The notes under the pieces were generated by a model. The model was given only the letters and a program-made list of their open reading frames with translations, searched no databases and was not told where the DNA came from. DNA of 64,000 bases from Candidatus Bathyarchaeota archaeon (GTDB lineage Archaea; Thermoproteota; Bathyarchaeia; TCS64): positions 192,001-256,000 of the forward strand of contig CAVYLP010000004.1 in the NCBI GenBank assembly GCA_963769425.1. Reading direction: 5' to 3'. This document shows, one piece after another, positions 6,982-55,635 of this stretch. A program made the position numbers and the translations under genes. The number at the start of each line of letters is the position of its first letter. The first letter of the stretch is position 1.

Positions 6982-8363
6982 CCGCTTACTACGGCGTAAG
7001 GACTGCGTAGCCTCACCTCCTCTCTCTCACCGGCTCCTAGATCAGAAACCGCTTTGTAGATGTAACCAATCCTTTCGTATTGCTCCTCACCCGAGGCTGT
7101 CGTGATACTTAACCTCGGGCTGATAGCAAAGCAGGGTACTTGTGCCCTCTCGAATATTTTTCTTACCAGAGTCTTACACTCGGACGGGTCCGTTATCCCC
7201 CTCTCTAGGAATACGTTGAAGATCGACCCGCCTGTGTACATGCCCTGAAGCTTCTTCTGGTGCTCGAGGGCGTCCCAGAGGTCGTCCGTGTAATCCACAG
7301 GGAGGCAGGTCGAGCGAGTATAGAATGGGACCTCGACACCCGATGTCTGCATCTCAGGGAACTTTTCCTTGTCCAACATGGCAAGATGATGTCCTGCATC
7401 ACCGGAAGGCTCCGCCTCGAGACAGAAACGGTGACCAGTATCCTTCTCATGCGCCTCGAGTCTGTCACGCATAGTCTCAATAATCTTGTAGGTGACCGCC
7501 TTCCCCTTCATCGATTCTATCCCTTTACCCATCAAATTTAGGAGAGCTTCATGTACTCCTACGACGACAACCGCGCCGAAAAAGTCGTCGAAGGACTCCA
7601 CAATGGAGGCTGTGGCGGGTAGACGACCTGCCTTAAGCTCCTCCTCAAGGTGGGCACGTTTAGCTTCCAGTCCTTCAACTGCCATATCAATTTGCGCTTC
7701 TATCCGTTCGAAGAAGATCTCCTCTTTGCCCGCGTCATGAGCTGCACGTGGCAGATTAGGTGTTATTGCCCCAATAACTCCCGTGTTTACACCTGAGGCG
7801 CCGCCATCCAGCCAAGGGTTCCTCAGCTCGTATCCCTCCTTGTGCTCTTTATTGATGAATATCGGTGAATTAAGAGACGAGGATGCTTCGAATATTGGGG
7901 AGTCCTCGACTGGCCAACTGTATGAGTTGGAGAGGTTAATAACTGGAGTAATGATTCGACCGCCATTTTCGCTCAAAGAAAAAACGGTTTTAAATAATTT
8001 TCCCAAGTTCTGCTCGTCTAGACCTAGGTAAAGATCCGGCGTTTTTCCTTTTATAGCGTGATCGAGGGCTCTTTTAATAAAGGGTCCGGGTCTCTCCCCA
8101 AATTTGTCTTGAATGAGGGTGGATAACCCGTTTAGCCTCAGGAAGCCATGCCACTCTTTCTCAGCTTTCTCCAGAAAGTCGTCGAGTTTATCCCACTTTT
8201 CCTCAATGCTTTGTCCTGAGTCTATACCCGTTACATTGGAGAGGTCCCAAGAAGACCAATATCCTCGATGATCATCGAATCCGTGAATGTAGAGGTCACC
8301 GACGCTATGGGCCCTAATGACCCTCGTTCCGTAAATGTGTGTAGAAGCCATCGTTGACCACAC
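6975..8363 (-). CDS. Divergent class III ribonucleotide reductase (NrdD)-like protein lacking catalytic Cys and Zn ribbon
   Basis: H..GDLYIH, TGVIGAITPNLPR, LEAEP, PFYTRSTCLPVDYTDDLWDALEHQ..LQ..YTGG are NrdD-type motifs; only 462 aa. Confidence 0.8.
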   Translation of the reverse strand: MWSTMASTHIYGTRVIRAHSVGDLYIHGFDDHRGYWSSWDLSNVTGIDSGQSIEEKWDKLDDFLEKAEKEWHGFLRLNGLSTLIQDKFGERPGPFIKRALDHAIKGKTPDLYLGLDEQNLGKLFKTVFSLSENGGRIITPVINLSNSYSWPVEDSPIFEASSSLNSPIFINKEHKEGYELRNPWLDGGASGVNTGVIGAITPNLPRAAHDAGKEEIFFERIEAQIDMAVEGLEAKRAHLEEELKAGRLPATASIVESFDDFFGAVVVVGVHEALLNLMGKGIESMKGKAVTYKIIETMRDRLEAHEKDTGHRFCLEAEPSGDAGHHLAMLDKEKFPEMQTSGVEVPFYTRSTCLPVDYTDDLWDALEHQKKLQGMYTGGSIFNVFLERGITDPSECKTLVRKIFERAQVPCFAISPRLSITTASGEEQYERIGYIYKAVSDLGAGEREEVRLRSPYAVVSGW

Positions 8364-13236: not shown

Positions 13237-13848
13237 TCATTGCCTTCTAAGAGGCTCCCTCCACATACACCATAAGCTGGGACCGTCCAAGAGGCGGACC
13301 TCTTCGGTGATCTTGAATCCATTACGCTGGTAGAGTGGGTTGTTTCTGGGATTGCTGCTCTCCAAGTAAGCGGGGATACCCTGTTCGTCCAGGCGACTGA
13401 GAGTGTAATGTAAGAGGGCTGAAGCATAGCCCTGCCCCTGCTTGCTCGGATCGACACCTATAACGTCAAGGTACTGGTGGGGGACACGTGGTCTGTGATC
13501 ATCGCAGGCTTTGATGAACGCCATCATCCTGCGGACCCGTCCTAGACCAGAGTAGCCAATCAAATGAGGAAGTGTGAGAATGGGGTCGATAGGGCTGTGG
13601 AATTCGTTCAATGCTTCGGGTGGTGCCCATATGGCACAGGCGTTGAGGTCGGTGGTCGTTGTCTCCTCCCCGTAGCGAAGGGTTCCCTGAATTCCTCTGC
13701 GGAACATTGTGCGAAGGGCGTTCATCCTACCTGCGTCTGTGCGCATTGCCCAGTCGATTACGGGGTCAGTGCTAAATGCTTGGGTTAGGACTTCGGAGAG
13801 GCGCGGGATGTCCTCTTTCCTGAGCTCCCTTACCTCTATGCCCGACAC
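13237..13848 (-). CDS. GNAT family N-acetyltransferase
   Basis: YLDVIGVDPSKQGQGYAS, YLESSNPRN..LYQRNGF. Confidence 0.9.
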   Translation of the reverse strand: MSGIEVRELRKEDIPRLSEVLTQAFSTDPVIDWAMRTDAGRMNALRTMFRRGIQGTLRYGEETTTTDLNACAIWAPPEALNEFHSPIDPILTLPHLIGYSGLGRVRRMMAFIKACDDHRPRVPHQYLDVIGVDPSKQGQGYASALLHYTLSRLDEQGIPAYLESSNPRNNPLYQRNGFKITEEVRLLDGPSLWCMWREPLRRQ

Positions 13849-13925
13849 GGGGGATTAGGAGTTGATTCCAGAGATAACCCTTTCATATGGAAAGTTAGAA
13901 AGGGCGGGCTTCCCGTCGAGAGCCT

Positions 13926-14276
13926 ATGCCTTTTGAGCGTCGCGGCGAGAAGCTGCTGCCGAGGAAGGCTTTCGTCTCGAGGGTGGTGAAGTATACCCTT
14001 CTATCCCTCGCTCTAGTCGTAGCCTCGCTCTTAGTCGGAATCCTCGGCTACACACAGCTTGGTGGTCTTTCACTCGTGGATGCTTTTCTCAACTCGGCTA
14101 TGATTATGGGTGGCATGGGCCCGGTCAATGTGCTCAGTAACGACTCGGCTAAACTGTTCGCAGGTTTCTACGCCCTCTGGTGCGGGTTCGTCGAGCTAGT
14201 CGCAGTCGGGATATTCGCTGCCCCTATCGTCCACCGCCTCCTCCACAGGTTCCATCTTGAAGGTGGTCGGGACTAA
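13926..14276 (+). CDS. Small 2-TM membrane protein with channel pore-like segment
   Basis: TM-GY..LSLVDAFLNSAMIMGGMGP-TM layout. Confidence 0.65.
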   Translation: MPFERRGEKLLPRKAFVSRVVKYTLLSLALVVASLLVGILGYTQLGGLSLVDAFLNSAMIMGGMGPVNVLSNDSAKLFAGFYALWCGFVELVAVGIFAAPIVHRLLHRFHLEGGRD

Positions 14277-14419
14277 TCATCCTTCAGCGGGGCCCTTTCG
14301 AGCATGGGCCAGATCACATATTAAATGGCAGAATAAGAAATACACTTCAATCTTGAATAGTATGTTAAACGCATCAACTTTCAGAAAATATCTTTTTATA
14401 GAATGTGTATTCGAAGTTT

Positions 14420-14536
14420 AAGAGGATCAGGAACGGGGAGCACTAGACCCTTGAGACGCTTATCAATGAAGAGGCATTGTTATTCGCCAAGTATCTTAGA
14501 GGAGAGATTAAAGTATGGATTCCTAGAATAGTTTAA
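14420..14536 (+). pseudogene. cas1: Decayed 3' end of a second cas1 copy
   Basis: Translates KRIRNGEH*TLETLINEEALLFAKYLRGEIKVWIPRIV*; 28 of 36 residues match the C-terminus of the cas1 at 20241-20348 (KRIRNGEHQTIETLINEESLLFAKYLRNERIEWSPR); in-frame TAG. Confidence 0.88.
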
Positions 14537-14569
14537 ACCCTTAACGAAAGTCGGTTTAACGCGAACAGA

Positions 14570-15349
14570 CTAGTCCATTAGCGCACCCGCGTCTACGTTT
14601 ATGTCCTGTCCGGTAATGTTAATTGAATCCTCCGAGGCGAGGAAAACAGCCAACTTCGCAACGTCATCCGCCGAAATCAAGCAATTAAGAGAGGACTGTG
14701 ACAAAAACCTCTGCTTGACAACATCTCTCGGGACACCTTCCTTCGCAGCAACCTGATCACAAACCATCTCGATCCTCGGCCCAGCCACAGGACCCGGACA
14801 AATAGCGTTTGCTGTTATCCCGAACTTACCCAACTCAACAGCAAGCCCTCTGGTGAAGCCAATCAACCCCATCTTTGTCGCAGGGTAAGGGGATCTGTTC
14901 GCCAGCGGCTTTTTGGCAGCCGTAGAGGAAATGTTGACGATCTTCCCATATCTATGTTCAATCATTGTCGGCACAATGGCTCTGCAGCAGAGAAATGCTC
15001 CTCTAAGATTCACAGCGAAGATTTCATCCCACTGTTCGGGTGTAACCTCGTAGATTGGCACAGTTGGTCCTGCGATGCCGGAGTTGTTCACTAGAATGTC
15101 TATTTTACCGAACTCATTGATAGTATCCTTAGCTGCATGGTTAACCTGTTCGACGCTCGTTATGTCCATGGTATTAACCAGAGCCTTCCGATCAAGTGCC
15201 CTGATTTCTCGTGCTACGTCTTCCATCTGATTGGTTGACTTCGCTGCTAGAGAAACATGTGCGCCTTCGTGCGCAAACATCAGGGAGATTGCTTTACCTA
15301 TCCCGACGCCTCCACCTGTGATGAATGCGACTCTATTTTCAAGTTTCAA
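14570..15349 (-). CDS. SDR family oxidoreductase (island cargo)
   Basis: TGGGVGIG, NNSG, YPATK (YxxxK), ICPG. Confidence 0.92.
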   Translation of the reverse strand: MKLENRVAFITGGGVGIGKAISLMFAHEGAHVSLAAKSTNQMEDVAREIRALDRKALVNTMDITSVEQVNHAAKDTINEFGKIDILVNNSGIAGPTVPIYEVTPEQWDEIFAVNLRGAFLCCRAIVPTMIEHRYGKIVNISSTAAKKPLANRSPYPATKMGLIGFTRGLAVELGKFGITANAICPGPVAGPRIEMVCDQVAAKEGVPRDVVKQRFLSQSSLNCLISADDVAKLAVFLASEDSINITGQDINVDAGALMD

Positions 15350-15399
15350 ATAAAACGCCTCATTCTTTGATCGATATCAATAGCGCTTGTAATAAAACT

Positions 15400-15436
15400 G
15401 ATGAGAGGGTTTGGGTTTGGGGGATAAGACTTTATC
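15400..15436 (+). repeat. End motif copy A (GATGAGAGGGTTTGGGTTTGGGGGATAAGACTTTATC)
   Basis: 22-bp exact match 15413-15434 to 22299-22320; 19-bp exact match 15408-15426 to 25160-25178; terminal CCC missing. Confidence 0.85.
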
Positions 15437-16479
15437 TATCATTAAAAAATAGTGATCTCGGTATAAGTGCATATTATAGAGAAAACCCTATTAAATCTAA
15501 TCCAAATAAATTTGCTAGACATTTAATAAAAGAAAAGGTCGATAAAATATTAGAGTATAAACTATTACAAATAGATAATAATTACTTAATGATTGAATTT
15601 ATAATATCATTTGTCGATCATTTTAATGAACAATTAGGGATAATAGTATCTGATAACTATTCTTTAGATGAAATTGAGAAAGGATTTTTTAGATATTTAC
15701 CAATATGGCTAGATGAAGCCATTAAATTTATGCTTAGAACAAAAAGAAATGGGGTTACTTCAATTGAACGGTTATTATATAAAAAACCTTATTTTAATCC
15801 AGATATGCTCAAATCCCAAATTATGAAAGATGAAAGGGAAGAAATACGTAAGAAGGTTGTTGATAGGTTAAATAAAGATGAAAGTATTTCCCTATCCATT
15901 GGAAATGAAAAATATCCAATGAAATTGTTCCATGATTTTTTTATAAGATTAAAATTAATGGGTATTAAAGACATACATAGAATATACCGAAAAAAAGATT
16001 ATAATAGACTCAGTAACGGAGGATTAATATGGAATCTTTTATCAGAAGAGGCTTTAAGCTATAATTTAAATATTTTTTTTAATAACTTTTTTAAGATTTA
16101 TTCAGAAATTATACAACTAAATTTTCCTAAAATATCAAATAAGATTAATAAGTATAAAAATTTGTCAGGGATTTTATTAATTTATAAATCTTTAGATCAC
16201 TATGAAGATGGAAAAGAAGTACCGAGTATACGATATTACTATTTACATAATAAAGAAAATTTCAACTTTAACATATTTATCTATAAAGAAAACGAAATAA
16301 AAGAGTTAAAAAACAACACTCCTGAAGCAATAATTAATATAAACAAGGTAGAATATCAAGCCGTATTAACCGGATCTCAAATATTAGATTTTATTTATGA
16401 TGATTTACCAATGTTCACGTATCTATACGAAGATATCAAAGGAGATTTGAACGAATATTTTGAAAATAATGAAGACTAA
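15437..16479 (+). pseudogene. AT-rich ORF, probably the C-terminal part of a larger protein cut at end motif A
   Basis: Open frame to 16479; composition switches exactly after the motif; the upstream part of the called ORF overlaps the SDR gene and the repeat. Confidence 0.55.
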
Positions 16480-16603
16480 TTATAGAATTTTTGAGAATAT
16501 TTTCCGTTTTTATCTATTCGCTTATACTTTCTTTATCACGTTTTCACATATTATGTGTATTATCGAACAATATTAAAAAAACCAATATTAACATAAATAA
16601 CCT

Positions 16604-17287
16604 TTAAAGGTGGTTAACATTTAATTTAATTAATAAATTAATACTTCCTTCAGGCATTTTTTCTTGAGGCATTTCAATCATATCTTTTGATGTAGGACAT
16701 GAAGGTTGTAATAATTTAAATTGATCAAGAATTGTGTCCCAATGAGCTAATTTAATATTTTCACTTTTATATAGTAATTTTCTTGTGTCAAACATTTTAT
16801 CAAATAATGATTCGTGTCTTTGATGTGGTATTTCGGATTTCCTTTCTATTTTGGTATTACTACTACCTATAATTATTCCACCGATTTTCACATTTTTTGG
16901 ATCTTGTATTTTAAAATCATTTAAAAACTGTTGATTATTTTTTTGATCTAAATAATAATGTAGTAATTGATTTTCTGCTTTTACTAAATCGTCGCTTGGT
17001 TTTAGCCTGTTTTCATTATCTTTTTTAAAAATAAAACATTGTGGAGCTTTAGCTTCCCAAATAAATGCTTCATTATACTGTGTTCCTAAATCATCTTCGG
17101 TTATACCGGATATGATAATATCTGAGTCCCCTGAATTTCCTCGGTATTCTATATCTATTTTAATTTTATTGATCAATTTATCTCTAAATAAATAATTTTC
17201 TAATTTTATTAAATATTTTTTACATTGCTCTTCCTTATTTGAATCGCTTTCAATTAATTTTTTTAATTCGTCGTAATCAGATGTCAT
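16604..17287 (-). CDS. Shedu (SduA/DUF4263)-like PD-(D/E)xK nuclease
   Basis: E..C..YL, DSDII, WEAKAPQ..IF, PSDDLVKAENQLLHY (QxxxY), GIIIG, HWD follow the DUF4263 motif order. Confidence 0.7.
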   Translation of the reverse strand: MTSDYDELKKLIESDSNKEEQCKKYLIKLENYLFRDKLINKIKIDIEYRGNSGDSDIIISGITEDDLGTQYNEAFIWEAKAPQCFIFKKDNENRLKPSDDLVKAENQLLHYYLDQKNNQQFLNDFKIQDPKNVKIGGIIIGSSNTKIERKSEIPHQRHESLFDKMFDTRKLLYKSENIKLAHWDTILDQFKLLQPSCPTSKDMIEMPQEKMPEGSINLLIKLNVNHL

Positions 17288-17541
17288 AATTTAACACCTT
17301 GTTTCATTTTTAAAAAATATGAAATTAAATCTTCTAGATAATCAAGATAATTTTCTTTATTAATTATTTCTCCAAACGATATTAAAATACATAGTTTTAG
17401 AGAATAACTTAAAATTCCGATATCTTTTACATTAATAGATTGTTTATGATTATCTATTATTATTGTACTATCTTTTCCCAGCGTTATACTAAATCCGTTA
17501 ACACTACAATATGAAATAAAAAAATTTCTACTATTATTCAC
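17284..17541 (-). CDS. Small hypothetical protein coupled to the Shedu-like gene
   Basis: 85-aa AT-rich ORF whose stop overlaps the start of 16604-17287. Confidence 0.45.
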   Translation of the reverse strand: MNNSRNFFISYCSVNGFSITLGKDSTIIIDNHKQSINVKDIGILSYSLKLCILISFGEIINKENYLDYLEDLISYFLKMKQGVKL

Positions 17542-17612
17542 TACCCATGCAGATTTTGTTTCATCTATTTCTGTTTTGAATAAACCAAGAAACGGAAAAA
17601 TATTTTTATCAA

Positions 17613-17753
17613 CTAATCCTCAAGCTTGAACCAGTAACAGGTTCTCCTTGCCCAGTACTTCACAAGCATCAACGGGACTCCATCGAAGTCAAGCTTCACC
17701 GTTGACTTGTCAGAGATTCCGAGGATAAAATTAGGATTCGACTCGCTTGTCAA
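17613..17753 (-). pseudogene. Short or truncated ORF with a hhDhD motif (possible AEP primase-like N-terminus)
   Basis: TTG..MTSESNPNFILGISDKSTVKLDFDGVPLMLVKYWARRTCYWFKLED*; overlaps the upstream gene end; stops where AT-rich DNA begins. Confidence 0.4.
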
Positions 17754-18078
17754 CCCAATAACCCCCAGTCGAATATCTATCAGGATTAATCAGAAAATCA
17801 CCACAGGACACTGAAACAAAACGACCCCTAGGGGGATGATTCACAGCATACGCGATACACTGATACAAGTCCCTCCCTGACCCATTGTAGAACTCGTACC
17901 TTCGCGATGCACTACCCTCCCTAGTCACGCTGTAGCCATACATGGCGACACTCTTACCGACAAACGACCTTGAAACCGTGACTTCGACGTACCTCACCCA
18001 GTGTGTGAACCTGCCCCTAGAGTCGCGGGTAACGGTGAACCTCCCTCTATTGCCCCAAGTCTCATTCCGCGTCGGCAT
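17731..18078 (-). CDS. Basic hypothetical protein with RDSRGRF motif
   Basis: 115-aa ORF with GGAG upstream, overlapping its neighbours in an operon. Confidence 0.7.
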   Translation of the reverse strand: MPTRNETWGNRGRFTVTRDSRGRFTHWVRYVEVTVSRSFVGKSVAMYGYSVTREGSASRRYEFYNGSGRDLYQCIAYAVNHPPRGRFVSVSCGDFLINPDRYSTGGYWVDKRVES

Positions 18079-18493
18079 TGGTGGGCTCCTCCTTCGGGAT
18101 TCCTAGGAAAATTAGGTTGCCGTTATCGAGTTTCACAATGTCCCATGCTAGGCATGATTTCAGGTAGTCCTCAAGGTAGCGGGTATCTACCCCGATGTAG
18201 CTCCTGAGGCGTGGCTTGATGAAATCATTCCAGTTTCTGCCCGAGTTTTCACTTATGAATAAGATGAATCTTTCCCAGTGTGTGTAGGCGATTTGCTTCG
18301 AGAGGTTCTGTTTCTCGATCCCAATGTGCTTTAGAACCGCCTCAATTTTTTGATTTTCTGAATGCACGAGGTTGAGTTTGGGTTTGATTTGAAAGTCATT
18401 AATTTCAACCCATCTTCTGTGGCATTCTGGACTGCAGAACTTGTGAGGCTCCGGGATCTCCTTCCCGCATTCGGGGTTTCCGCATGTGGGCAT
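18062..18493 (-). CDS. Zn-finger (CxxxxC..CSPEC) plus putative winged-helix protein
   Basis: N-terminal Cys cluster; GGAGGTGA SD; TAATG coupling to the upstream ORF. Confidence 0.7.
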   Translation of the reverse strand: MPTCGNPECGKEIPEPHKFCSPECHRRWVEINDFQIKPKLNLVHSENQKIEAVLKHIGIEKQNLSKQIAYTHWERFILFISENSGRNWNDFIKPRLRSYIGVDTRYLEDYLKSCLAWDIVKLDNGNLIFLGIPKEEPTNADAE

Positions 18494-18633
18494 TAACTCA
18501 CCTCCTTCGGGTCGTTATACTTCGTTTTCATCGTCCGACGTACATCGAGGCGATAGTGCAGATAGAAGCAGTACTTCTGCCCCTCGTGGTTGGATACGAA
18601 CTCTTTCCCACAAAACTCACATTTCTTCAACAT
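18493..18633 (-). CDS. Small Zn-finger protein (46 aa), below the ORF track size range
   Basis: MLKKCEFCGKEFVSNHEGQKYCFYLH...; stop overlaps the next ATG (TAATG). Confidence 0.7.
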   Translation of the reverse strand: MLKKCEFCGKEFVSNHEGQKYCFYLHYRLDVRRTMKTKYNDPKEVS

Positions 18634-18682
18634 TTAGACCGGATTATGTCTCACTCGCAAAGTATTTAATTATGATAAGACG

Positions 18683-18720
18683 TGTCATAATATGACAAAT
18701 GTCATGACGGTGATTGTCAT
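18683..18720. promoter_or_regulatory. Operator-like array of TGTCAT/ATGACA half-sites between divergent operons
   Basis: TGTCAT-aat-ATGACA-aa-TGTCATGAC-ggtgat-TGTCAT. Confidence 0.7.
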
Positions 18721-18735
18721 ACATCGGGTGGTTTA

Positions 18736-19338
18736 ATGGCTAAACGCAAAACTCTTGGATCAACTCAGGAAAAGATCGTCCTCTATCTTGCTAATAACCC
18801 CGGAAAAACAATGAGCGACATGCAAAAGGACTTTGGCATTCCCAGAAACTCATACAACGTAATTCATAGACCCACTAAGGTACTAGAAGAAATGGGGTAC
18901 GTCACATTTAGTGAGAAACCTTCAGAAAAGGCTCGACCAAAGTATCCCGTTTCTCTAACTGAAAAAGGAGTACTCTACGCCCTATCCAAGACGCCAGAAA
19001 TAAAGAAAATAAAAAAGATCCTAGGCAACTACTCTACGATATACCCCGGTTTTAAGAGATACTTGGAATTATCGCAGGAGTTAGGTGATGAACTTTTCAT
19101 AAAAATATCTCCAAACCTGTTCTATTCCTATTCAATGTATGACACTGCGAAAAGTGAAGATGACAGATTGCAAATTGGTTGGTCATTAGGGGCTATTTTC
19201 GGTTCAGAGATGGACGAAGAGGATCGCGAAAAATTCTTTGATGTTATTTTCAAAATTTACCCTGAGTTTTTACCAGAATTCAATAAGATGGCGGAACAGT
19301 TCATGAAAATGTTCCGGAAATATGGTGCGTCTATTTGA
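18736..19338 (+). CDS. Winged-helix (MarR/ArsR-like) DNA-binding protein
   Basis: TQEKIVLYL..N-terminal HTH, LEEMGYV, SLTEKG wing. Confidence 0.75.
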   Translation: MAKRKTLGSTQEKIVLYLANNPGKTMSDMQKDFGIPRNSYNVIHRPTKVLEEMGYVTFSEKPSEKARPKYPVSLTEKGVLYALSKTPEIKKIKKILGNYSTIYPGFKRYLELSQELGDELFIKISPNLFYSYSMYDTAKSEDDRLQIGWSLGAIFGSEMDEEDREKFFDVIFKIYPEFLPEFNKMAEQFMKMFRKYGASI

Positions 19339-20378
19339 CCAAATTGGAAACCAAGCTCGTCCTCGATGGGAATGGATCTCTATCTCGGCATGGAGAAGGG
19401 CTGTTTTGTCCTAAAAGACAAGAATGGCGGGATCAACAGGTATCCCTTATTCGAGCAGGAAATAGACGAGGTTATATTGAAAAGTGGTAACAGTATTTCG
19501 ACGGGGGCTTTAGCTTCATTCGGCTTCTGGGATATCGATGTTATGGTGATGACCTCTCGGGGTCGCCCGGTCGCGATGCTCAGGAGCTTCGATGATGATT
19601 CTCACGTTGAAACTAGAGTAAGTCAGTACAGGGCGAGCCTTGATGAGAGAGCCTTCGAGATTGCAAAGACTCTCGTAATTGCGAAGCTTGAGCCAGAATA
19701 TTCTCCTGAGAAAATATGGTCTTGAGCCTCATGATGAAAAATTCAGGGATCAGGTAGAGAAAAGCGATTCGAAGAATCTAGTCTCGTTGAGGCAGAGGCT
19801 TACAGGGATCGAAGGAAAATACACTCAGAAATATTACTGGGAGATATTCAATCTACTCCCCGAGAAGATCCGACCAGAGAAGAGGGAAGGTTTCATGGCT
19901 TATGATGGAGTTAACAACCTCTTCAATCTGGGCTATGAGGTTCTAGGTTGGAAGGTTCACAAGGCTCTCGTTAAGGCGAAGCTTGAGCCCTATCTCGGTT
20001 TCCTTCATAGTAATCAGATGGGGAAGATGAGTCTCGTCTGTGATTTTCAGGAGATTTACCGATATCTGATTGATGATTTTCTGATCAAATACTGCAAGAG
20101 AATTGGCAGGAAAGACTTCGTCACAAAAATAGAGGTTATAAATAAGCGTAGGAGGGGAAAAAAGAGAGTATCTCAATAACTCGGATACAAAGTCTCTCCT
20201 TGATGAATTGAACGCTTTTTTCGAGTCCATTGTTGAGGTTAAGAGGATCAGAAACGGAGAACATCAGACAATTGAAACACTCATTAATGAAGAATCTTTA
20301 TTATTTGCTAAATATTTAAGAAATGAACGAATAGAATGGAGTCCTCGAAATTGGGTGGAAAATAATGGATCTTTTTAG
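19335..20378 (+). CDS. cas1: Stand-alone Cas1 integrase (casposase-like), three frameshifts near 19380, 19690 and 20160
   Basis: TTG overlaps the upstream TGA; G(S)YLGMEKGCF, ISTGAL, RVSQY, GIEG (Glu), NNLFNLGY, PYLGFLH (His), SLVCDFQEIYR (Asp/Glu); about 345 aa reconstructed. Confidence 0.9.
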
Positions 20379-21275
20379 ACTAAAACTTAAAATTAAGTTT
20401 TTCTTAAAGGAAAGAAAAAACTAATTGCTAAGGTACTCAGTATTGGGTTAATTATATTATTTGGCGCTTTATTTTTTTACCTCGGTTCGAATTCTTTATT
20501 GTACTACTATAATCCACCTATTCATAAAATTAATTCAATGTATCAAGGCTTTTCAGTTGGATATAATTCCACAAGGGATTTTAGACCCAACCAAGTAGAA
20601 ATTATGATAACGCCGAATAATACTCTTAACGAAGTAATGATAACAACTAAATTTTATGTCACTATTAAGAACAATGGTACATATAATATTAAATATTTAC
20701 TACCTTTTCATCTAATTAAATTACCAAATAATAATACTAGAATTATATATAAAAATTATTCTCATGGAGTTATTATAGGGACATCAAGAGAATATCAGAA
20801 CATACCAAAAAGTGAATCAGCAGAAGTAAATGATGTCATCATTTTTTCTTTTTATTCTAATGATACATTTATTAGTGGAGAAAAAGGTAAATATTTATTA
20901 GTTTTACCATTTTCATATCCTGATTATTCGAGTAAGGAAATTAACCTGATAAATGATAAATTTGATATTCCATTTATTATTTCAAACCTAACTAAGACTA
21001 TATCTATTAACTTATCAAATCAATTTATTATTACAAACTCCATTCCTAATTATAATAATGGTCCCAATTATTCTAATTACACATTTAATGTTAAATGGGA
21101 AGCACCGAAACTACAAACTTTTAGTTTATATTTAGATTCGCCAAATGAAATTGAATCTTATAATTATACTTTATTTTTAGGAGGTCTTTATGTCGGCATA
21201 GGAATCCCTTTAACTATTCAAGGAATAATCGAATGGATTAAATTAATTATTGAATCACTAGATAAAAATTCTTGA
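20365..21275 (+). CDS. AT-rich membrane-anchored hypothetical protein (cargo)
   Basis: Frame of the 20499 ORF extends upstream through a TM segment (LIAKVLSIGLIILFGALFF); ATG 20365 needs one homopolymer indel; C-terminal TM. Confidence 0.6.
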
Positions 21276-21354
21276 AATCTTTCATTACCCTTTCTTAAAT
21301 TTTTTAATTTCAAAATTGAAGGTTTTATATTTAGTTTATTACCTTTATCCAATA

Positions 21355-22095
21355 ATGGCGGAAATTGAAAAAGAGCATCAAGCTAGACTGGACAAATTAT
21401 TTAAAAAGAGAGAAAAATTACATGGATATAAGATATTAACAGAGTTAGAATCATTAAATAGGACATATTTTATTGTTGAGCATAATTTTGACGATTTAAT
21501 GGAATATATTAAAAAATGTCAAAACGAGTTAATATTTGAAATATTTGAAAATGGACAAATAGCAAATAATACTAAATTGGAAACTTTACGCCTATTACAC
21601 AATTATTTGTCCAGTATACAATCTTTAATAAATCATATAAGAAAAACTAATAAAAATATTGATAGTAATGAATTAAATGAATATTATGAAGATGAAATGA
21701 TTAAATTTTCCAAAAATAATTTGGTAATTTTTATTAAAAATTTTCGAAATTATATACAACATTTTAAGATACCTTTACTTGCACAACAATTTCATATTTC
21801 TAAATTAGAAAACCAAAAAGTTTTGACAATGGAGGACATAGATGCGAGAAACGCTAAATTTGAATTCAATACATTCTTAAATAAAAAAGAATTATTGAAA
21901 TGGGATAGATGGAATAGACAATCAATAACTTATATAAAAAAATATATAGGAAAAAAAGAACTTAAAACCATTATTTCTGAATATCAAAATATGAATAGTA
22001 AACACTATGAGGATTTTTGTGATAAAGTATATGAAATATATAAAAAAGAAATAGATATAGTATATAATATAAATGTTGAAATTGATAATCTATGA
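21355..22095 (+). CDS. HEPN-like (RxxxxH) putative ribonuclease
   Basis: RLLHNYLSS..SLINH and FIKNFRNYIQH motifs; helical N-terminal part. Confidence 0.6.
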   Translation: MAEIEKEHQARLDKLFKKREKLHGYKILTELESLNRTYFIVEHNFDDLMEYIKKCQNELIFEIFENGQIANNTKLETLRLLHNYLSSIQSLINHIRKTNKNIDSNELNEYYEDEMIKFSKNNLVIFIKNFRNYIQHFKIPLLAQQFHISKLENQKVLTMEDIDARNAKFEFNTFLNKKELLKWDRWNRQSITYIKKYIGKKELKTIISEYQNMNSKHYEDFCDKVYEIYKKEIDIVYNINVEIDNL

Positions 22096-22224
22096 TAATT
22101 CATCCCATTATTCTTATTTATTATTATATATGAAAAAAATCAATCAGATTATTTAGTAATGCCCAAATAGAGTTAATTACCTAAAATTACAATGTAGTGT
22201 GTGATATACGTGATACGGTGATTT

Positions 22225-22420
22225 GTGTAGGAGAGTATAAGGGAATAGAAGAGAATAGAGGAGAAAAAGTGAAAGTTAGTTCGTGAGCAGATGAGAGGGG
22301 GTTTGGGGGATAAGACTTTAGCCCCAAATCCAAGTCTTTCTTTCCTCCATTACTACCTAACACTAACTCCCTACTCTCTTACACTCTTCCCCCCGCTCTC
22401 TCTACAACCAGACAGACAAA
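22225..22420. repeat. End motif copy B: palindrome GGGGATAAGACTTTAGCCCC (22306-22325) with purine-rich left arm and pyrimidine-rich right arm
   Basis: Left arm ends GATGAGAGGGGGTTTG like copies A and C; right arm CCCCAAATCCAA is the inverted counterpart of copy C. Confidence 0.85.
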
Positions 22421-22516
22421 CGAACGAATAATTTTAAAAAAGGGAGTTGATATGTTCTAAGAATTAAGCAAAGTGGCAAATACTGTGCTAATACGTTATT
22501 GTCGGTAGGACACACA

Positions 22517-24458
22517 ATGACTCACTTTCCAAACCTTTTCAGTACGATGAAATTAGGGCCCTATGTGTTAAAGAATCGGATTGAATCCGCGCCTATGGGA
22601 ATGCATGGCACACCAGAAGGATACCTGACCGCTGAGAATGCAGCATATTATGAGCTCCGGGCGAAAGGCGGGGCAGCCATCGTCACCCTTGGGGAAAGCA
22701 TGGTGGATTCAAAGGGGACATCTCACGGGAGGGTAACCCCGCTGGATGACCCGGGGATCCTGCCCTCCCTGATCAACACAACAGACGCGATTAAAAGACA
22801 TGGTGCCATCGCCTCAATCGAATTACTACACGCAGGAATCCGGTCGGGGACACAGCGGCCAGACGACCCAGTATACGGCCCAAGCGCGGGGACATCCTTC
22901 TACGGCAAACAGATCATCGAGATGGGGGACGCGGAGATCGACCAGGTCGTGAACGCCTTCGGAGACGCGGCCGAGATGGCGAAGATGGGCGGCTTGCAGA
23001 TGTGCATGATCCACGGGGGCCACGGCTGGCTCCTGTCGCAGTGGTTCTCCCTCCTGCACAACCACAGGAAAGACAACTTCGGGGGAAGCATCGAGAACAG
23101 GGCACGCATTGCATTGATGATCATCGAGGATATACGGAAAAAATGCGGTCCGAATTTCCCGATCGAGATCCGACTGAGCGGCGATGAGTTTACGGAGGGC
23201 GGCATGAAGCTAGAGGAAACGGTTGAACTCGCAAAGGTGCTAGATGGTAAAGTCGACCTGATCCACGTATCCGCGGCGACCTTTAATGACCGAACCGCAG
23301 GCCTCAGGATGTTTCCCAGCGTGTTCCTCCCCCGGGGCTGCAACGTGTATCTCGCCGAGGCAATCAAGAAAGCCGTGAAGACTCCAGTGGCCACAGTCGG
23401 GTCATTGAACGATCCCGCCCACATGGAGGAGATCTTGGAGAGCGGAAAGGCGGATGTGATAACCCTGGGAAGGGCGCTTCTGGCAGACCCCTACCTACCG
23501 GAGAAGGCGAGAAAAGGGGACGAGGAAGACATCACGCCTTGCATCCGCTGTAATTACTGCATCAGTCAGAACTTTACTCCCTATGTGAAATACCCAAAAG
23601 GTGTCGCCAGGTGTGTTGTCAACCCGATAATAGGCCGGGAGTATGAGAGCCGGTTTGTCCAAGTGAGCGGCGGAAAGAGGAAGGTGATGGTGGTCGGAGG
23701 CGGACCGGGAGGGATGCAGGCCGCGATCACGGCCGCGGACCGGGGACACGAAGTGATCCTCTGCGAAAAAGGTAAACGACTCGGCGGGACGCTGCTATAC
23801 GCCGAGCATGAATACTTTAAAGAGGACATAAAGAAGCTGACCGAGGTACTGATCAGGCGGGTACAGAAACGGCCGATAAAATTAATGATGGATACGGAAG
23901 CCACGCCTGAGGTCGTTAAAGAAATCTCCCCCGATGTTCTGATAGCCGCAGTGGGAGCCGAGCCAATCATTCCCAACATACCCGGAATAAAGAACAAGAA
24001 TGTGGTTGTCGCTGCGAGCATGTATGATGAAGCACGCCATCGGCAAGAAGGTGGTCGTCATAGGAGGCGGGCTGGTGGGCTGCGAGGAGGGGCTACACCT
24101 CGCCCACCAGGGCAGGGAAGTGACCATCCTGGAGATGCTCGAGAAGGCTGCGCCGGAAGCACCCTACCTGCACTGGCTGGGGCTGATGAAGGAGCTCGAA
24201 AAGAGTGTCCGGCTGGAGACACGCGCAAAGGTTACACGAATAACGGAAGAGGGCGTGTTCGCAGTAAATGAAAAGGGAGAGGAACAGTTCTACGAAGCGG
24301 ACACGGTACTACTGGCGGTCGGGCTTAAGCCGAGAACAGAAATGGTTGAGCCCCTGCGAAACTGCGCACCGGATTTCGTAGTGATAGGAGATTGTCTACG
24401 GCCAGCAACCGCTATGGAAGCGATACATATGGGCTATTTCTCCGCCATGAATGTCTAA
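22517..24458 (+). CDS. NADH:flavin oxidoreductase (Old Yellow Enzyme / 2,4-dienoyl-CoA reductase-like), frameshift near 24025
   Basis: LKNRIESAPM, HGGHGWLL, CIRCNYC Fe-S motif, VVGGGPGG, second VIGGGLVGCE in the next frame. Confidence 0.9.
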
Positions 24459-24558
24459 AATTTCATTTAATCTCTATAAATACAATCGTGATAGGTCTCC
24501 AGTAAACAGACAGACGAATTACAGTTTAGCTTTGTTGTCGGCAACTCGATGTATGCTA

Positions 24559-24993
24559 TTATGGATAGAAGTGCACTATTTTTTTCGGCACGACCCTTAA
24601 CGTGACCTGAGTCTTATCATCGAACTCTGAAATGAAAGATGACTCCCTATGATATTTACCCCACACCCATTGCACATACTTGTTATAACCCTCCTCCGGC
24701 TCAAAGCCAAGCTCTGCCAATCCGTAAACCAATGCACATCTAGATGGAGTATCACCTTCACCAAGTTTTGACCCCTGCATGAGGAATGAGAGGGACACGT
24801 TATTGTTTCGCTTGATGTTCTCTACTCTTTTTGATTTCTTTATGGATACGAAGTAGAAGACATTGTCTTTGTAATTGTACCATATGGGGGCAGCATGGAT
24901 GGTGCCATCCTTATTGTGACTACAGAAAATTGTGGTGTAAGATTCCATAAATAAGCTATGCACGTCCTCTTTGGTCATCTTGTTGGTACTCAT
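24559..24993 (-). CDS. Pyridoxamine 5'-phosphate oxidase-like split-barrel flavoprotein
   Basis: NKDGTIHAAPIWY, SKRVENIKRNNNVSL, LRVVPKKI. Confidence 0.8.
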   Translation of the reverse strand: MSTNKMTKEDVHSLFMESYTTIFCSHNKDGTIHAAPIWYNYKDNVFYFVSIKKSKRVENIKRNNNVSLSFLMQGSKLGEGDTPSRCALVYGLAELGFEPEEGYNKYVQWVWGKYHRESSFISEFDDKTQVTLRVVPKKIVHFYP

Positions 24994-25155
24994 GAAAGTT
25001 ATATCCCCATATTGCTGACAGGCGACTCGATAATAAAGCAATACTCAAGAACGCGTCGTTCAAATAACATCTACGTTCTCCAGGTGCAAACATGTGTGTT
25101 TGTCCGGTTATTTCCCTATAGTTCTAGAGAAAATATGAGAGAATAAGATAAGTAA

Positions 25156-25191
25156 ATGAGGTTTGGGTTTGGGGGATACGGTTTTATCCCC
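25156..25191 (+). repeat. End motif copy C (ATGAGGTTTGGGTTTGGGGGATACGGTTTTATCCCC), right boundary of the island
   Basis: Perfect GGGGATA/TATCCCC inverted arms; preceded by a purine-rich tract; host-like DNA follows. Confidence 0.85.
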
Positions 25192-25226: not shown

Positions 25227-26444
25227 GTGTCCGGTCAATCGGGCGAGGCTTCAAGTTACCGGTGGGCTGTACTCGGTATCGCGTGGCTCAGCTACCTAGC
25301 CGTCTACATGGTGCGTGTATCTATTCCTCCACTTTCCCCTTTCATAGTGGAGGAGCTTAGCCTCTCGAAGACGGATGTGGGGCTCCTCGTTTCCGCTGGG
25401 GCTATCGGTTACTCGGTTTTTCAGCTCCCAGCTGGATGGCTCATCGACCGATTCGGCGTGAGAAAGATGCTTGTGACCAGTTGCTTCGCCGCTGGCGCGA
25501 TCATCAGTGCTATGTACTTCGCGAGCAATTTTCCGATAGCCTCCGCAGTCCTATTCCTCGGAGGCTTCGGTTACGGCTGTTTTCCAGCCGTGGCGACGAA
25601 AGCCTTGCTAACATGGTTTCCAGTGAACGAGAGGGGCACAGCGGTTGGCCTACAACAGACGTCAATAAACGCAGCGGGGATAATCACCGCGGTGAGCCTA
25701 CCCATCTTAGCGGAGGCTCTTGGGTGGCGCTTCGGATTCATCGGCGTCGGAGCATTCTCAATGATCGTTGCAGGAGTCGTCTACATCTTCTACAAAGAGC
25801 CACCTGCCGTACAACTAGAGCCGTCGACTCGTAGGAAAACGAGCCTTGCCGACATGAAGGAGGTAATATTCAACAGGAACATATTGCTCGTGAGCGCATC
25901 CTGCATAGGCTTCATGGCGGTCGACTACTCACTGACCACCTATCTAGTGATTTACCTGAAGGAGTCCGTGGGAGTAGCGGTCGCCCTCGCCGGAGTCTTC
26001 CTAGCGCTAACAAACATCGGCGGCCTCATGGGGAAGCTCTTCTTCGGCGTCATGAGTGACCGGTTCTTCGGGGGAAGCAGGAAGAGGCCGTTACTACTCG
26101 CCGGGGGCGTTATGCTCGCTATCTCCATCGCCGTTCAGGCTGTGAGCCCAGCGTCCCCAGGGTGGCTAATTGCCCTAATATTCGGCGTTTTCGGCTTCAG
26201 CGCCATCGGCTGGGGCGGGATGAACCTGATCCTAGTCTCGGAGTCGACGAGGAAGGAGAACGCGGGACTCGCAATGGGTTTCTCGCTGATGATCCTGCTC
26301 ATCGGGAACATCGCTGGTCCACCGATCTTCGGGTACATAGTTGACACGACGGGCTCCTACTCGCCGGCATGGTGGTTCCTGACTGCGTGCAGCATTGGAG
26401 CCGTTGCGCTAATGTCGCTAGTGAAGGAGAAGAAAGAGGGCTAA
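25227..26444 (+). CDS. MFS transporter
   Basis: GWLIDRFGVRK motif A, WFPVNERGTAVG, about 12 TMs. Confidence 0.92.
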   Translation: MSGQSGEASSYRWAVLGIAWLSYLAVYMVRVSIPPLSPFIVEELSLSKTDVGLLVSAGAIGYSVFQLPAGWLIDRFGVRKMLVTSCFAAGAIISAMYFASNFPIASAVLFLGGFGYGCFPAVATKALLTWFPVNERGTAVGLQQTSINAAGIITAVSLPILAEALGWRFGFIGVGAFSMIVAGVVYIFYKEPPAVQLEPSTRRKTSLADMKEVIFNRNILLVSASCIGFMAVDYSLTTYLVIYLKESVGVAVALAGVFLALTNIGGLMGKLFFGVMSDRFFGGSRKRPLLLAGGVMLAISIAVQAVSPASPGWLIALIFGVFGFSAIGWGGMNLILVSESTRKENAGLAMGFSLMILLIGNIAGPPIFGYIVDTTGSYSPAWWFLTACSIGAVALMSLVKEKKEG

Positions 26445-53699: not shown

Positions 53700-55503
53700 G
53701 AGCAGGCAGATAGCCATCATAGTAATTCTCGGGTTGGCCCTCGCCGTCGTCGGCGTGGCGGCGACTACGACCCTCAAGGACGTCGGGTTGACGGGACCCG
53801 CGGTGGTGAGCAGCTACGAGGCCCACTTCACCAGCAACGGAACCCTCACAGAGGACTACACATACACCTTCACGGAGCAGCAGTACCGGTTCCTCTACCG
53901 GAGCTGGGATGCCCCCGTCTCGCTGACGCCTCTAGGACAGCCATACATTAAACCTGTTCAGATCAACCCGCCGTCGGGCTCGGTTGCCTACGTCAAAGAC
54001 GCATACGGGTACGTCACCCTTGAGACTCCGAACGCGGGGTCATACGTGGAGGCAACGATCGACAGCCTCGCCAACTACAACGAGGTGGGCTGCTTTTACC
54101 CACAGCAGTTCACGCCGGGTGACTGGCACATCGGGTACACTTTCAACGTCTACCCCCCGATCGAGTACGACTCCAGCTACGACCACCTCAACCTCCAGTT
54201 TGCCAGCACCCACATCCCATATAGTAACGTGAAGATCGTGTTCGAGGACGCCTCCTACATTGCGGCCGTCTACCCGCACCCACCGAGCCTCACCGTTACG
54301 CGTACGGGCAACCAGATCGTGATTACCGGGAGCGCGGCGCAGGACGAGCTGCTCGAGGTCGAGCTGCTGATGACGCCGGGTGCTAGCCACTTCAGCGGCT
54401 TCAGGACCGCAGTCTCTGACATCAAGGGGAAGACGGACAGCGCGAACTTCTGGTACAGCCTCCAGTACAACGTAGCGACGCTGCTCGGCTACATCGCTAT
54501 CATAATAGTCTTCGCGGCTCCCCTCACACTCTACTGGGCGTACCTGAGGTTCGGGCGGGAGGAGGACGTGACAGTCCCCACCTACCTGAGCACGGTGCCG
54601 AATAAGGAGCGGAAGCCGTGGCTGGTGAACCTAATCTTCAGGAAGGAAATCTTCGACTTTGATGAGGACGGGTTCTACGCGACTCTGCTCGACTTCCACC
54701 TTCGAAAGAAGGTGAGGCTGGAGCCTAGGGAGCACGGGATGAAGATACACATTCTGGATGCGGCGGTGGACGACCCCTACGAGGAGAAGGTTATGGCGTT
54801 CCTCCAGAAACTAGCGGTGAACGGTGTATTCGACACGGACACCCTCCGCGACCTCGCTCACGACGTGCGCAGCGGCAAGGGGAAGTCGGCGATGGGACTC
54901 GAGATAAAGGCGGACCTCGACGACCTGATGCACTACTCAAACTCCTCCATCGTTAAACAGTTCGCAGTCGGCGGGAGAAGCAAGATTGTGCCCACCATAC
55001 TCCTCGGAGTGGCGATCTTCGTCTCGGCAATCATCCTCATCGTCTCCGCGCCGATAGTTGGATACCTGCTCGTCGCGCCGTTCCTGCTGGGAGCCATTGT
55101 AATAGTCCAGTCAGTGATTGCGCTGGCATTCCCCTCCACACTCTTCGGGAAGTGGCGCCCCGGCATGTTCAAGGAGAAGCTCGAGTGGGACGCCTTTAGG
55201 AACCACCTAGGCGACCTGGCGCAGCTAAGGAAGTATCCGACGGAGGACCTAAGCATGTGGGGTGACTGGCTCGTCTACGGCACCGCCCTAGGCGTGGGGG
55301 ACCGCGTCGCGGAGGCGATGAGGGACCTCAACGTCAACATAGACGTCGCGAGGTTCTACCCGCTGATGCCTCTCTGGTTCCGTCCGATAATCGTGGCTTC
55401 GCCTCCGCAGGCCCGGAGCAGCGGTGGAGGCTTCCACGGCGGTGGAGGCGGCGGCTTCGGAGGCGGTGGAGGCTTCGGTGGCGGCGGCGGCGGCGTCCGC
55501 TAA
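53692..55503 (+). CDS. DUF2207 family membrane protein
   Basis: Downstream of lemA; W..F..HL, WLVYGTALGV, Gly-rich tail. Confidence 0.88.
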   Translation: MDESRQIAIIVILGLALAVVGVAATTTLKDVGLTGPAVVSSYEAHFTSNGTLTEDYTYTFTEQQYRFLYRSWDAPVSLTPLGQPYIKPVQINPPSGSVAYVKDAYGYVTLETPNAGSYVEATIDSLANYNEVGCFYPQQFTPGDWHIGYTFNVYPPIEYDSSYDHLNLQFASTHIPYSNVKIVFEDASYIAAVYPHPPSLTVTRTGNQIVITGSAAQDELLEVELLMTPGASHFSGFRTAVSDIKGKTDSANFWYSLQYNVATLLGYIAIIIVFAAPLTLYWAYLRFGREEDVTVPTYLSTVPNKERKPWLVNLIFRKEIFDFDEDGFYATLLDFHLRKKVRLEPREHGMKIHILDAAVDDPYEEKVMAFLQKLAVNGVFDTDTLRDLAHDVRSGKGKSAMGLEIKADLDDLMHYSNSSIVKQFAVGGRSKIVPTILLGVAIFVSAIILIVSAPIVGYLLVAPFLLGAIVIVQSVIALAFPSTLFGKWRPGMFKEKLEWDAFRNHLGDLAQLRKYPTEDLSMWGDWLVYGTALGVGDRVAEAMRDLNVNIDVARFYPLMPLWFRPIIVASPPQARSSGGGFHGGGGGGFGGGGGFGGGGGGVR

Positions 55504-55557: not shown

Positions 55558-55635
55558 GGACCCGTAGCTCAGCACGGATAGAGCACAGGCCTCCTAAGTC
55601 TGGGGTCGTGGGTTCAAATCCCACCGGGCCCGCCA
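55558..55635 (+). tRNA. tRNA-Arg (CCT)
   Basis: GGACCCG-TAGCTCAG..GGATAGAGC-ACAGGC-CTCCTAA-GTCTG..GGTTCAAATCC..CGGGCCC-GCCA cloverleaf, encoded CCA, no intron. Confidence 0.95.

Follow-up and report, generated by a model that had tools for sequence, protein, structure and literature searches.

What brings a purine-rich arm and a pyrimidine-rich arm of DNA together on one short, palindrome-like sequence? The seam in question lies in the window, by which we mean the whole 64,000-nucleotide stretch of bathyarchaeal DNA that was analysed, and it centers on the 20-mer GGGGATAAGACTTTAGCCCC at positions 22306-22325. This 20-mer is the only match to itself in the window at up to three mismatches, and none of 100 shuffles contained a match. 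It belongs to copy B of three direct copies that form repeat family D9 (A, 15408-15436; B, 22294-22322; C, 25160-25188). The arm to the left of B ends ...GGGGGTTTG and the arm to its right starts AAATCCAAG. Both arms have a strong strand asymmetry, and here the original prediction of a purine-rich left arm and a pyrimidine-rich right arm holds. When each arm is read inward from its tip over positions 16-100, the pyrimidine fraction is 0.73 for the left arm and 0.72 for the right arm, against a genome mean of 0.50 (sd 0.074) in 85-nt windows. Among 20,000 random windows, 0.14% are as pyrimidine-high as the left arm and 0.20% as the right arm.

The 20-bp palindrome that was originally predicted at this place is present, but it is partial, with Watson-Crick pairing at 7 of 10 positions, and it is not a single unit. 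Its GGGG is the right-end tip of one element (E1), its CCCC is the left-end tip of the next (E2), and the 13 bp between them (22309-22321) are one copy of a target. Written out, the seam at 22297-22331 reads ...GGGGGTTTGGGG/GATAAGACTTTAG/CCCCAAATCC..., and it is the inverted tips of the elements, ...TTTGGGG and CCCCAAA..., that give B its palindromic look. The palindrome itself had been proposed as the duplicated target; instead, the duplicated unit is the inner 13 bp, and the outer GGGG and CCCC belong to the elements. A right end and the next left end that are parted only by one target copy are the layout of tandem casposons. The two arms were also considered as one inverted repeat or hairpin. 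This was rejected because complementarity stops about 10-12 nt from the tips. Local alignment of the reverse-complemented left arm with the right arm scores 21, while 500 composition-preserving shuffles have a mean of 17.9 and 80 of them reach at least 21. Folding of the 196 nt around B gives -29.3 kcal/mol, compared with -20.0 ± 3.0 kcal/mol in whole-sequence shuffles (z -3.1). Since such shuffling destroys the segregation of purines and pyrimidines, this value points to complementary composition and not to a specific hairpin.

The clearest view of what is duplicated comes from a 5.4-kb element elsewhere in the same genome (C1:101591-106964), which reads ...cttgggcgg/GAAAAGACTTTAG/CCCCAAACCC...GGGTTTGGGTTTGGGG/GAAAAGACTTTAG/AGCGGC. 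At the orthologous empty sites in three relatives (G052:C44, G023:C203 and G040:C110), the flanks are joined by one GAAAAGACTTTAG and there are no tips. The comparison of the occupied site with the three empty sites demonstrates that the core is duplicated upon insertion and that the tips are part of the element. The target site duplication is 13 bp long, and a length of 13-15 bp is possible because the flanking G's are ambiguous. The C1 core overlaps the stop codon of a ferredoxin-like gene, and the insert, a cassette without Cas1, encodes a peptidase as well as a SIR2/ThsA-like protein. Uncommon core variants likewise occur as pairs that bracket single elements, as GATAAAATTATAG does in G052:C44, where it occurs twice, 7.8 kb apart. 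The occupied-versus-empty comparison also rules out a 'swapped' model, in which the palindrome is a host site and the inserts lie between right-type and left-type flanks. At another end in the genome, C2:121993, the flank taken for an empty-site comparison is full of another dispersed repeat of about 90 nt.

Ends of this kind share a common plan. Left ends begin CCCCAAACCC(AAACC) and right ends finish (GGTTT)GGGTTTGGGG, and there are at least ten such ends in the genome. Terminal inverted repeats are present; true inversion spans only about 10-16 nt and the longer arms are not inverted. A 13-nt core resembling the consensus GATAAGACTWTRG invariably separates the tip from the DNA outside. The end-plus-core pattern GGTTTGGGGGATANGNNTTTA occurs at 5 places in the 2.55-Mb genome at up to two mismatches while its backwards control occurs at none, so the motif is beyond chance. 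At least two further tip types, CCACACACAC.../...GTGTGTGTGG and CTCACTTCCACC/GGTGGAAGTGAG, sit on the same core. At the uninterrupted site in genome G050, the core is preceded by a G-rich GGGTTTGGGGG that is similar to the right tip; at the empty C1 sites it is preceded by GGGCTTGGGCGA, in which the G-rich likeness to the right tip is less clear. We regard the G-rich stretch before the core as a leader-like part of the target, which could instead be an old right-end scar.

It might be argued that the motif is a palindrome of the host's own intergenic DNA (a terminator, an operator or a REP-like element, for example) and is unrelated to the mobile elements beside it. Its copies are intergenic, the G-rich stretch and core of the uninterrupted G050 locus stand before an MFS gene, and a further conserved context, ATCAGGTGGAAGTGAG followed by the core, occurs 7 times in the genome. 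However, the tips arrive with the 5.4-kb insert at C1, and they extend into arms of about 100 nt that are conserved with particular cargo genes across genomes. The distribution of the motif is also patchy, as is typical of mobile DNA. At up to three mismatches, right tip plus core is found in 7 of 61 family genomes, all of one genus: the window's own genome and 6 of the 17 others in its genus. None of the 43 genomes from 11 other genera has it, and the backwards control matched once in all. Additionally, no Rfam family or tRNA lies at the motif sites. A host palindrome is thus highly improbable. The repeat was also considered as an RNA gene or tRNA fragment and rejected, as the window holds only a tRNA-Arg at 55558. 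The same search at seven other repeat loci of the genome gave only one tRNA match, which is unrelated.

The window contains several such elements between two host genes. The left flank is a GNAT gene that ends at 13848 and the right flank is an MFS transporter gene (25227..26444, plus strand; Pfam MFS_1 1.6e-56). The block 13897-25163 is absent at the orthologous locus G050:C30, where the GNAT and MFS genes are 85 bp apart and the uninterrupted site GGGTTTGGGGGAACGGTTTTATCCCTGGCTGG stands immediately before the orthologous MFS gene. At the left of the array, a 39-residue C-terminal relic of a second Cas1 (14414..14530, plus strand) contains an in-frame stop and matches residues 342-380 of an intact relative's Cas1 in tblastn (77% identity, E 2e-14). 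It also matches 20241-20348 within the window (DNA repeat D1; tblastx). This relic marks E0, an older and truncated element on the left side of copy A. Between the relic and end A lies a short-chain dehydrogenase gene (14570..15349, minus strand; Pfam adh_short 2.4e-57), which is probably E0 cargo; in 17 genus genomes there is no orthologous DNA of this stretch except about 90 nt at its 5' end. The right-end tip A (15400..15422, plus strand) is GATGAGAGGGTTTGGGTTTGGGG. It has only 24 nt in common with the right end of E1, with an alignment score of 29 that none of 300 shuffles reached. Core A (15423..15435, plus strand) is GATAAGACTTTAT and matches core B at 12 of 13 positions.

Element E1 (15436..22308, plus strand) fills the 6.9 kb between A and B and carries a broken Cas1 gene. 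Its AT-rich blocks (22-26% GC) flank a middle of about 45% GC that holds Cas1. The frames in the AT-rich blocks have no PADLOC or NCBIfam match, and Pfam gives only a sub-threshold match to Shedu SduA_C. No E1 left tip is recognisable beside core A, which is followed by AT-rich DNA. A left end further inside, at 15437-19400, was sought and rejected: the best local score there is 28, on an unrelated 19-mer. The Cas1 gene (19369..20348, plus strand) is spread over three frames, 19369-19692, 19694-20164 and 20160-20348, and tblastn with an intact relative gives 68-75% identity. Its pieces both match PF01867 (9.9e-13 and 2.5e-26), and it is either a pseudogene or a gene broken by assembly indels. 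In the purine-rich right arm of E1 (22195..22308, plus strand), GTGATA repeats mark the inner edge and the outer end reads ...GGGGGTTTGGGG. This arm is homologous to the right arm of an intact Cas1 element in another genome (G028:C20), with a score of 63 against a shuffle maximum of 35 (0 of 300 shuffles as high).

Core B (22309..22321, plus strand) is GATAAGACTTTAG, the single target copy common to E1 and E2. Element E2 (22322-25174) is an oxidoreductase cassette without Cas1. Its left arm (22322..22436, plus strand) starts CCCCAAATCC and is pyrimidine-rich, then has a CAGACAGACAAACGAACG motif and then an A/T-rich stretch before the first gene. This arm is related to the left arm at C1:101591 (score 44, reached by none of 300 shuffles). 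The cargo gene (22499..24458, plus strand; Pfam Oxidored_FMN 1.8e-54 and Pyr_redox_2) encodes an Old-Yellow-Enzyme-type NADH:flavin oxidoreductase fused to a FAD/NAD-binding part. It is split into two overlapping frames, a break that could be an assembly indel rather than decay. E2 also has a pyridoxamine-phosphate-oxidase-like gene (24559..25041, minus strand; Pfam PNPOx_N 3.9e-08), which in relatives is unlinked to the oxidoreductase, with DNA matches at other places. The right end of E2 is right end C (25120..25174, plus strand), which is partly purine-rich and finishes ...GAGGTTTGGGTTTGGGG. It is followed by core C (25175..25187, plus strand), GATACGGTTTTAT, the host-side target copy. Cores C and B disagree at 4 of 13 positions, and core C resembles the uninterrupted G050 core GGGTTTGGGGGAACGGTTTTATCC; on this side of E2, homology to the uninterrupted G050 locus starts only at 25164.

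The same oxidoreductase gene follows one core and left arm in four genomes, namely in that of the window, in G052, and at G040:C77 and G054:C17. In G052:C44, 124 of 130 nt of the arm are identical to the E2 left arm, and there too the arm comes after the identical core GATAAGACTTTAG. The left neighbours of the gene differ among the window, G052 and G040, which have three different ones. The same gene, core and arm beside different left neighbours argue that E2 behaves as a cassette without Cas1. Four further genomes have the oxidoreductase gene with no end within 260 nt upstream.

Is the single core at B an accident? One could imagine that two elements inserted separately and that a one-off event between them, a deletion or a recombination, then produced B. 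A one-off deletion is what the original prediction had named as its possible undoing, and deletions did happen in this array, with E0 truncated, E1 lacking a left tip and Cas1 in three frames. The proposed count of palindromes per junction in relatives speaks against it. Their loci contain 47 distinct core sites with at least one recognisable arm, and these comprise 18 with ends on both sides of one core, 21 with an upstream end only and 8 with a downstream end only, fractions that are biased because the loci were fetched via a motif or Cas1 match. The arrangement that had been predicted at B, in which a right and a left end meet on one copy of a duplicated target, is therefore a recurring one. 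The spacing from G-run to C-run is also constant, with 12 nt in 14 distinct relatives' junctions and at B, and 11 nt in 2. The remaining junctions are one with a degenerate tip and one 63-nt case that is probably unrelated. Given the both-sided cores, the constant spacing and the very same core at the left junction of E2 in G052, B is not a one-off deletion, and an accidental single core is very unlikely indeed.

A join of two contigs at a common 33-nt repeat would also place two arms on one core. In favour of such a join, the genome was binned from a metagenome (91% complete, 4.9% contamination) and the repeat turns up elsewhere in the community. In three peat metagenomes, contigs match B only over the 33-35 nt of tip, core and tip and then continue into other flanks, an observation that also counts towards single-core seams being common. 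Among contigs from four public metagenome runs, none spans both B arms and 21700-22271 is uncovered, although one contig from a sediment metagenome (X4) covers 22299-22487 with 1 difference. None of the public runs was found to contain half of the sequence words of 21700-23000, and no RNA run was among those listed for it. On the other side, the repeat is only about 33 nt long and the contig is 425 kb long in a 6-contig assembly. Both junction types occur independently in other assemblies, the E2 side in G052 and the E1-type side in G028, and the flanking host DNA is syntenic with G050 at either end of the array. We consider an assembly artefact to be barely credible.

If B is a true seam, which enzyme could have built it? 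The Cas1 of the intact relatives is about 340 aa long and aligns end to end with the 327-position model TIGR00287 (166 bits, cut-off 71.7); that of G028:C20 matches PF01867 at 1e-44. No added C-terminal HTH, a trait of family 2 casposases (those of M. mazei and A. boonei type), is present in the intact proteins of about 340 aa. The Cas1 profile scores 106 bits on the CRISPR Cas1 of A. fulgidus (4n06) and 69.6 bits on the M. mazei casposase (6opm), a comparison with casposase families made through PDB and NCBIfam scores only. Cas1 relatives occur in 8 of 18 genus genomes, and 9 of 24 Cas1 rows lie within 2.5 kb of a match to the end-plus-core pattern. Nearly all of the 64 related loci come from Bathyarchaeia/Bathyarchaeota records. 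Both Cas1 loci of the window's own genome are broken. The G028:C20 element is intact, with a length of 3.4 kb, a full Cas1 and GGGG/CCATAGTCTTATC/CCC(C) seams on both sides, and the homology of its right arm to the left arm of B includes the GTGATA repeats. Relative to the asymmetric core, its orientation is opposite to that of the Cas1 element in the window, which departs from the fixed orientation expected of leader-directed insertion. The association of these elements with Cas1 genes suggests that they may depend on Cas1. No DNA polymerase family was found in 20 window frames, in 10 frames of G028:C20 or in 88 non-Cas1 frames of at least 220 aa in 16 Bathyarchaeia Cas1 loci. A PF03175 search left the genome without a match, as it did the control genomes. 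One IS-type DDE transposase lies near a relative's Cas1, in locus L075.

We think it likely, with a good deal of confidence, that B is where two members of a decayed tandem array of casposon-like Cas1 transposons, located between the GNAT and MFS genes, join head to tail. Elements with short inverted tips would insert at the 13-bp core downstream of a G-rich stretch. The element's Cas1 would cut the target with a stagger of 13-15 bp and join its 3'-OH G-tips to it, and the gaps would be filled by repair. Every new core copy could then serve as an insertion site again, and since a later element lands in a flanking core copy, neighbours would be separated by exactly one core. The match of cores A and B at 12 of 13 positions makes it most likely that E1 landed in a core already present on the left side of E2. 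Cores A and B also share a TTTA variant, a further instance of paired core variants. As the E1 left tip is missing, it is this identity that pairs A and B as the duplication of E1. E2, which has no Cas1, was presumably moved in trans or as part of a block. The right tip GGGTTTGGGG seems to imitate the G-rich stretch before unoccupied targets, a likeness that may keep occupied sites attractive for further insertion and let arrays grow. The single-core layout of B agrees with the tandem casposons described in the parts of four articles used here (PMC4779613; PMC6563490; PMC5137440; PMC10359463). B confirms the published rule that site-specific casposons reuse their duplicated target, hence one copy between neighbours. 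The premise that abutting transposons normally show a separate target duplication fails for such casposons.

E2 fits this scheme less simply. Since cores B and C differ at 4 of 13 positions (matching at 9), E2 is not flanked by a simple duplication, and its unlike cores recur in G052, with GATAAGACTTTAG at the left and GAACGGTTTTATC at the right. E2 is either a composite or deletion product that was inherited or moved as a block, or an element that carries a core along. The latter leads to a broader alternative, in which the core at B is an att-like site of conservative crossover, or is carried by the element through a circle that joins right end, core and left end. The left core of E2 is identical between the window and G052, contig X4 reads across this junction as well, and the right core of E2 is like the uninterrupted host core, a pattern that a left core moving together with E2 would produce. 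The part of the MetMaz-C1 study considered here hypothesises a circular intermediate by which the original target site is transferred (PMC10359463), and the unlike E2 cores would fit it. Inverted tips around a spacer also resemble the core site of a recombinase. Against this, both cores of the C1 element are the host's rare variant, which is present once in each of the three empty sites; the target was therefore duplicated there and the core was not imported. No tyrosine or serine recombinase is found in or near the elements (20 window frames, 10 frames of G028:C20 and the 88 frames near relatives' Cas1), which bears equally on att and integron attC sites. The overlap of tyrosine recombinases is 6-8 bp, and the 13-bp spacer exceeds it. 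We judge a crossover site or a carried core at B to be improbable and retain the seam between target-duplicating Cas1 elements.

How does this array compare with known casposons? The tandem family 2 casposons of Methanosarcina sp. 2.H.T.1A.x and 2.H.A.1B.4 are the closest precedent in the sections used here of Krupovic et al. (2016; PMC4779613). Often one of the copies has been inactivated, a 14-bp duplication has conserved outer positions and a variable middle, and solo ends stand beside target-like sequence, features that resemble those of the present array. According to the same sections, these casposons are 8-20 kb long and have PolB, HNH and a Cas1 with a C-terminal HTH (PMC4779613), whereas the present elements are 3-7 kb long, with no polymerase found and a plain Cas1 of 340 aa. 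The present array also differs in its many units without Cas1 and in at least three tip kinds on one core. With respect to the characters that define casposons as self-synthesizing Cas1 transposons (Krupovic et al., 2014), a Cas1 integrase, terminal inverted repeats and a target site duplication (13 bp, beside the usual length of about 14-15 bp) are found here, and PolB is not.

A second precedent is the pair NitNF5-C1/C2, tandem family 1 casposons at the ef-2 gene of Ca. Nitrosopumilus adriaticus, in the relevant parts of Krupovic et al. (2019; PMC6563490). They belong to the same archaeal superphylum and are inserted in tandem in one target at a gene 3' end, and their NERD and OLD nuclease/defence cargo resembles the NERD, SIR2 and TIR cargo of the present elements. 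Family 1 casposons have a protein-primed PolB and conserved accessory genes in that account (PMC6563490), none of which is seen here. The target of the Aciduliprofundum boonei casposase is described, in the portions used of two articles, as a 15-bp target site duplication segment plus 18 bp of upstream 'leader' (PMC5137440; PMC6614799). It is similar to the present target in that a duplicated segment is combined with an upstream recognition stretch, and from it arrays with one target copy between neighbours were predicted (Beguin et al., 2016; PMC5137440). The A. boonei leader lies within a tRNA-Pro gene and new copies are predicted upstream only, as stated in the same portion (PMC5137440); the present upstream stretch is instead G-rich and right-tip-like, and elements occur in both orientations to the core. 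In the sections used on MetMaz-C1 of Methanosarcina mazei Go1, insertion into its own target sites leads to tandem structures in vivo, tandem arrays are also produced in vivo with a mini-casposon, and excision leaves one clean target copy (PMC10359463). MetMaz-C1 is a 10-kb, PolB-bearing casposon and an experimental system (PMC10359463), while the present elements are known from sequence alone.

The array also invites comparison with CRISPR and integrons. As in a CRISPR array, an insert is bounded by repeat copies that a Cas1 reaction duplicates, the repeat is partly palindromic and growth is by reuse of the repeat. CRISPR arrays have near-identical repeats of 24-47 bp at regular intervals, separated by short spacers and located beside cas genes. 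Here the duplicated unit is 13 bp, the 'spacers' are gene cassettes of 0.6-7 kb with their own ends, the spacing is irregular, and no Cas2 or effector genes are nearby. The three copies in the window are 6.9 and 2.9 kb apart with genes between them, and the window contains no Rfam CRISPR direct-repeat family. In integrons, too, cassettes of mostly one or a few genes, each with a short recombination signal, are lined up at a single site and exchanged among genomes. Their recombination relies on a tyrosine recombinase and folded attC sites, whereas the only array-associated recombinase here is Cas1 and insertion duplicates the target.

The sharing of a single target by neighbouring casposons is already known, and the novel part is a polymerase-less Bathyarchaeia lineage with stacked cassettes that lack Cas1. 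In the full texts searched, a collection with few subscription journals, the papers that name both casposons and Bathyarchaeia do so incidentally (PMC6393860 among them) and do not describe these elements. The passages found within the same scope, those in PMC6452270 and PMC13343696 included, contain no non-autonomous or PolB-less casposons.

As a tentative and rather doubtful extension, Bathyarchaeia may possess a Cas1-driven cassette system that stands between casposons and CRISPR. A CRISPR-like Cas1, with neither polymerase nor HTH, would insert any DNA with G-tips of about 10-16 nt into a 13-bp core. The right tip would mimic the G-rich target stretch, such that each insertion yields two valid targets. 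Rows of cassettes would result, in which the palindromes of tip, core and tip, about 33-45 bp long, are proto-CRISPR-repeat-like. Cassettes without Cas1 would be moved in trans, and some cassettes may carry a core via a circle, which would account for the unlike E2 cores. Such a system, if real, would be a living analogue of the proposed step from casposon to CRISPR, with Cas1 inserting foreign DNA between repeat copies. With a short, well-defined target (a G-rich stretch plus GATAAGACTWTRG) and equally brief tips, it would lend itself readily to testing in vitro. Archaea would also have in it a new way of gaining accessory metabolic and defence genes; the cassette cargo seen comprises both kinds (oxidoreductase, SDR, SIR2, NERD and TIR).

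The unlike core pair that flanks E2, the oxidoreductase cassette without Cas1, recurs on another contig of the same genome. There, 15 nt at C2:128518-128532 (GGGGATACGGTTTTA) are identical to core C and its G-run, and a tip-plus-core carrying a B-type core is found 6.5 kb away in inverted orientation (C2:121981-122007). Beside this C2 tip lies another dispersed repeat, roughly 90 nt long (C2:121829-121917; L140 4830-4918). It is present in at least 10 copies in the related genome G046 and also occurs in the relatives G028, G032, G040, G050, and G052.

In relatives, a second tip type, CCACACACAC... / ...GTGTGTGTGG, delimits a 4.7-kb Cas1 element (L048 8284-12975, on G028:C10; also loci L047, L051, L006, L008, and L060). 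The Cas1 of this element has 48% identity to the reference. The element shares its core with the GGGTTT-type tips and forms mixed seams with them. Cas1-bearing elements contain three to four GTGATA repeats about 100 nt inward of the right end (window 22199-22224; L046 12712-12745), and the other arm type has a CAGACAGACAAAC-type motif at equal depth (window 22404-22421, C1:101650, and L060). Both motifs are candidate subterminal protein-binding sites. On the outer side of cores and tips, GCGCGCGC runs recur within about 10-40 nt at many sites, including the empty site on G050:C30, C3:53330, C1:335100, L007, L018, L024, and L025.

The window's own genome has seven copies of a conserved sequence about 35 nt long, ..ATCAGGTGGAAGTGAG|GATAAGACTAT(T/G)G (C1:7206, C1:94574, C1:335167, C1:335994, C4:411341, C6:70336, and C6:905173). 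This sequence is either a third tip type or a landing pad dedicated to insertion that precedes the core. Two of the seven copies have tRNA-like 3' ends about 150 nt upstream.

The Cas1-bearing element E1 carries AT-rich ORFs at window 16604-17287 (-), 15448-16479 (+), and 20499-22095 (+). These ORFs gave no family match except a Shedu SduA_C hit that falls under the cut-off (E 8e-4, 20 bits), and they may be defence cargo of unknown kind. In the own genome, a cassette that has casposon-type tips but no Cas1 begins with a gene (C1:101739-103112, or L138 3739-5112) for a SIR2-domain protein similar to ThsA/PDC-S25 (PADLOC E 8e-21). The E2 oxidoreductase gene is split into two overlapping frames (window 22499-24271 and 24000-24458) and Cas1 into three, which reflects either decay or indel errors in the assembly.

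Directly upstream of Cas1, several distant loci of relatives have an ORF of 220-310 aa (L083, L084, L090, L093, and L076, at about 7000-8000), which in L083 contains an ArsR-type HTH. The same position in the window is occupied by a different ORF of 200 aa with a weak winged-helix match. Elsewhere in the window, a tandem repeat rich in glycine codons (GGCGGTGGAGGC...; 55421-55500) lies just upstream of tRNA-Arg (55558-55635).
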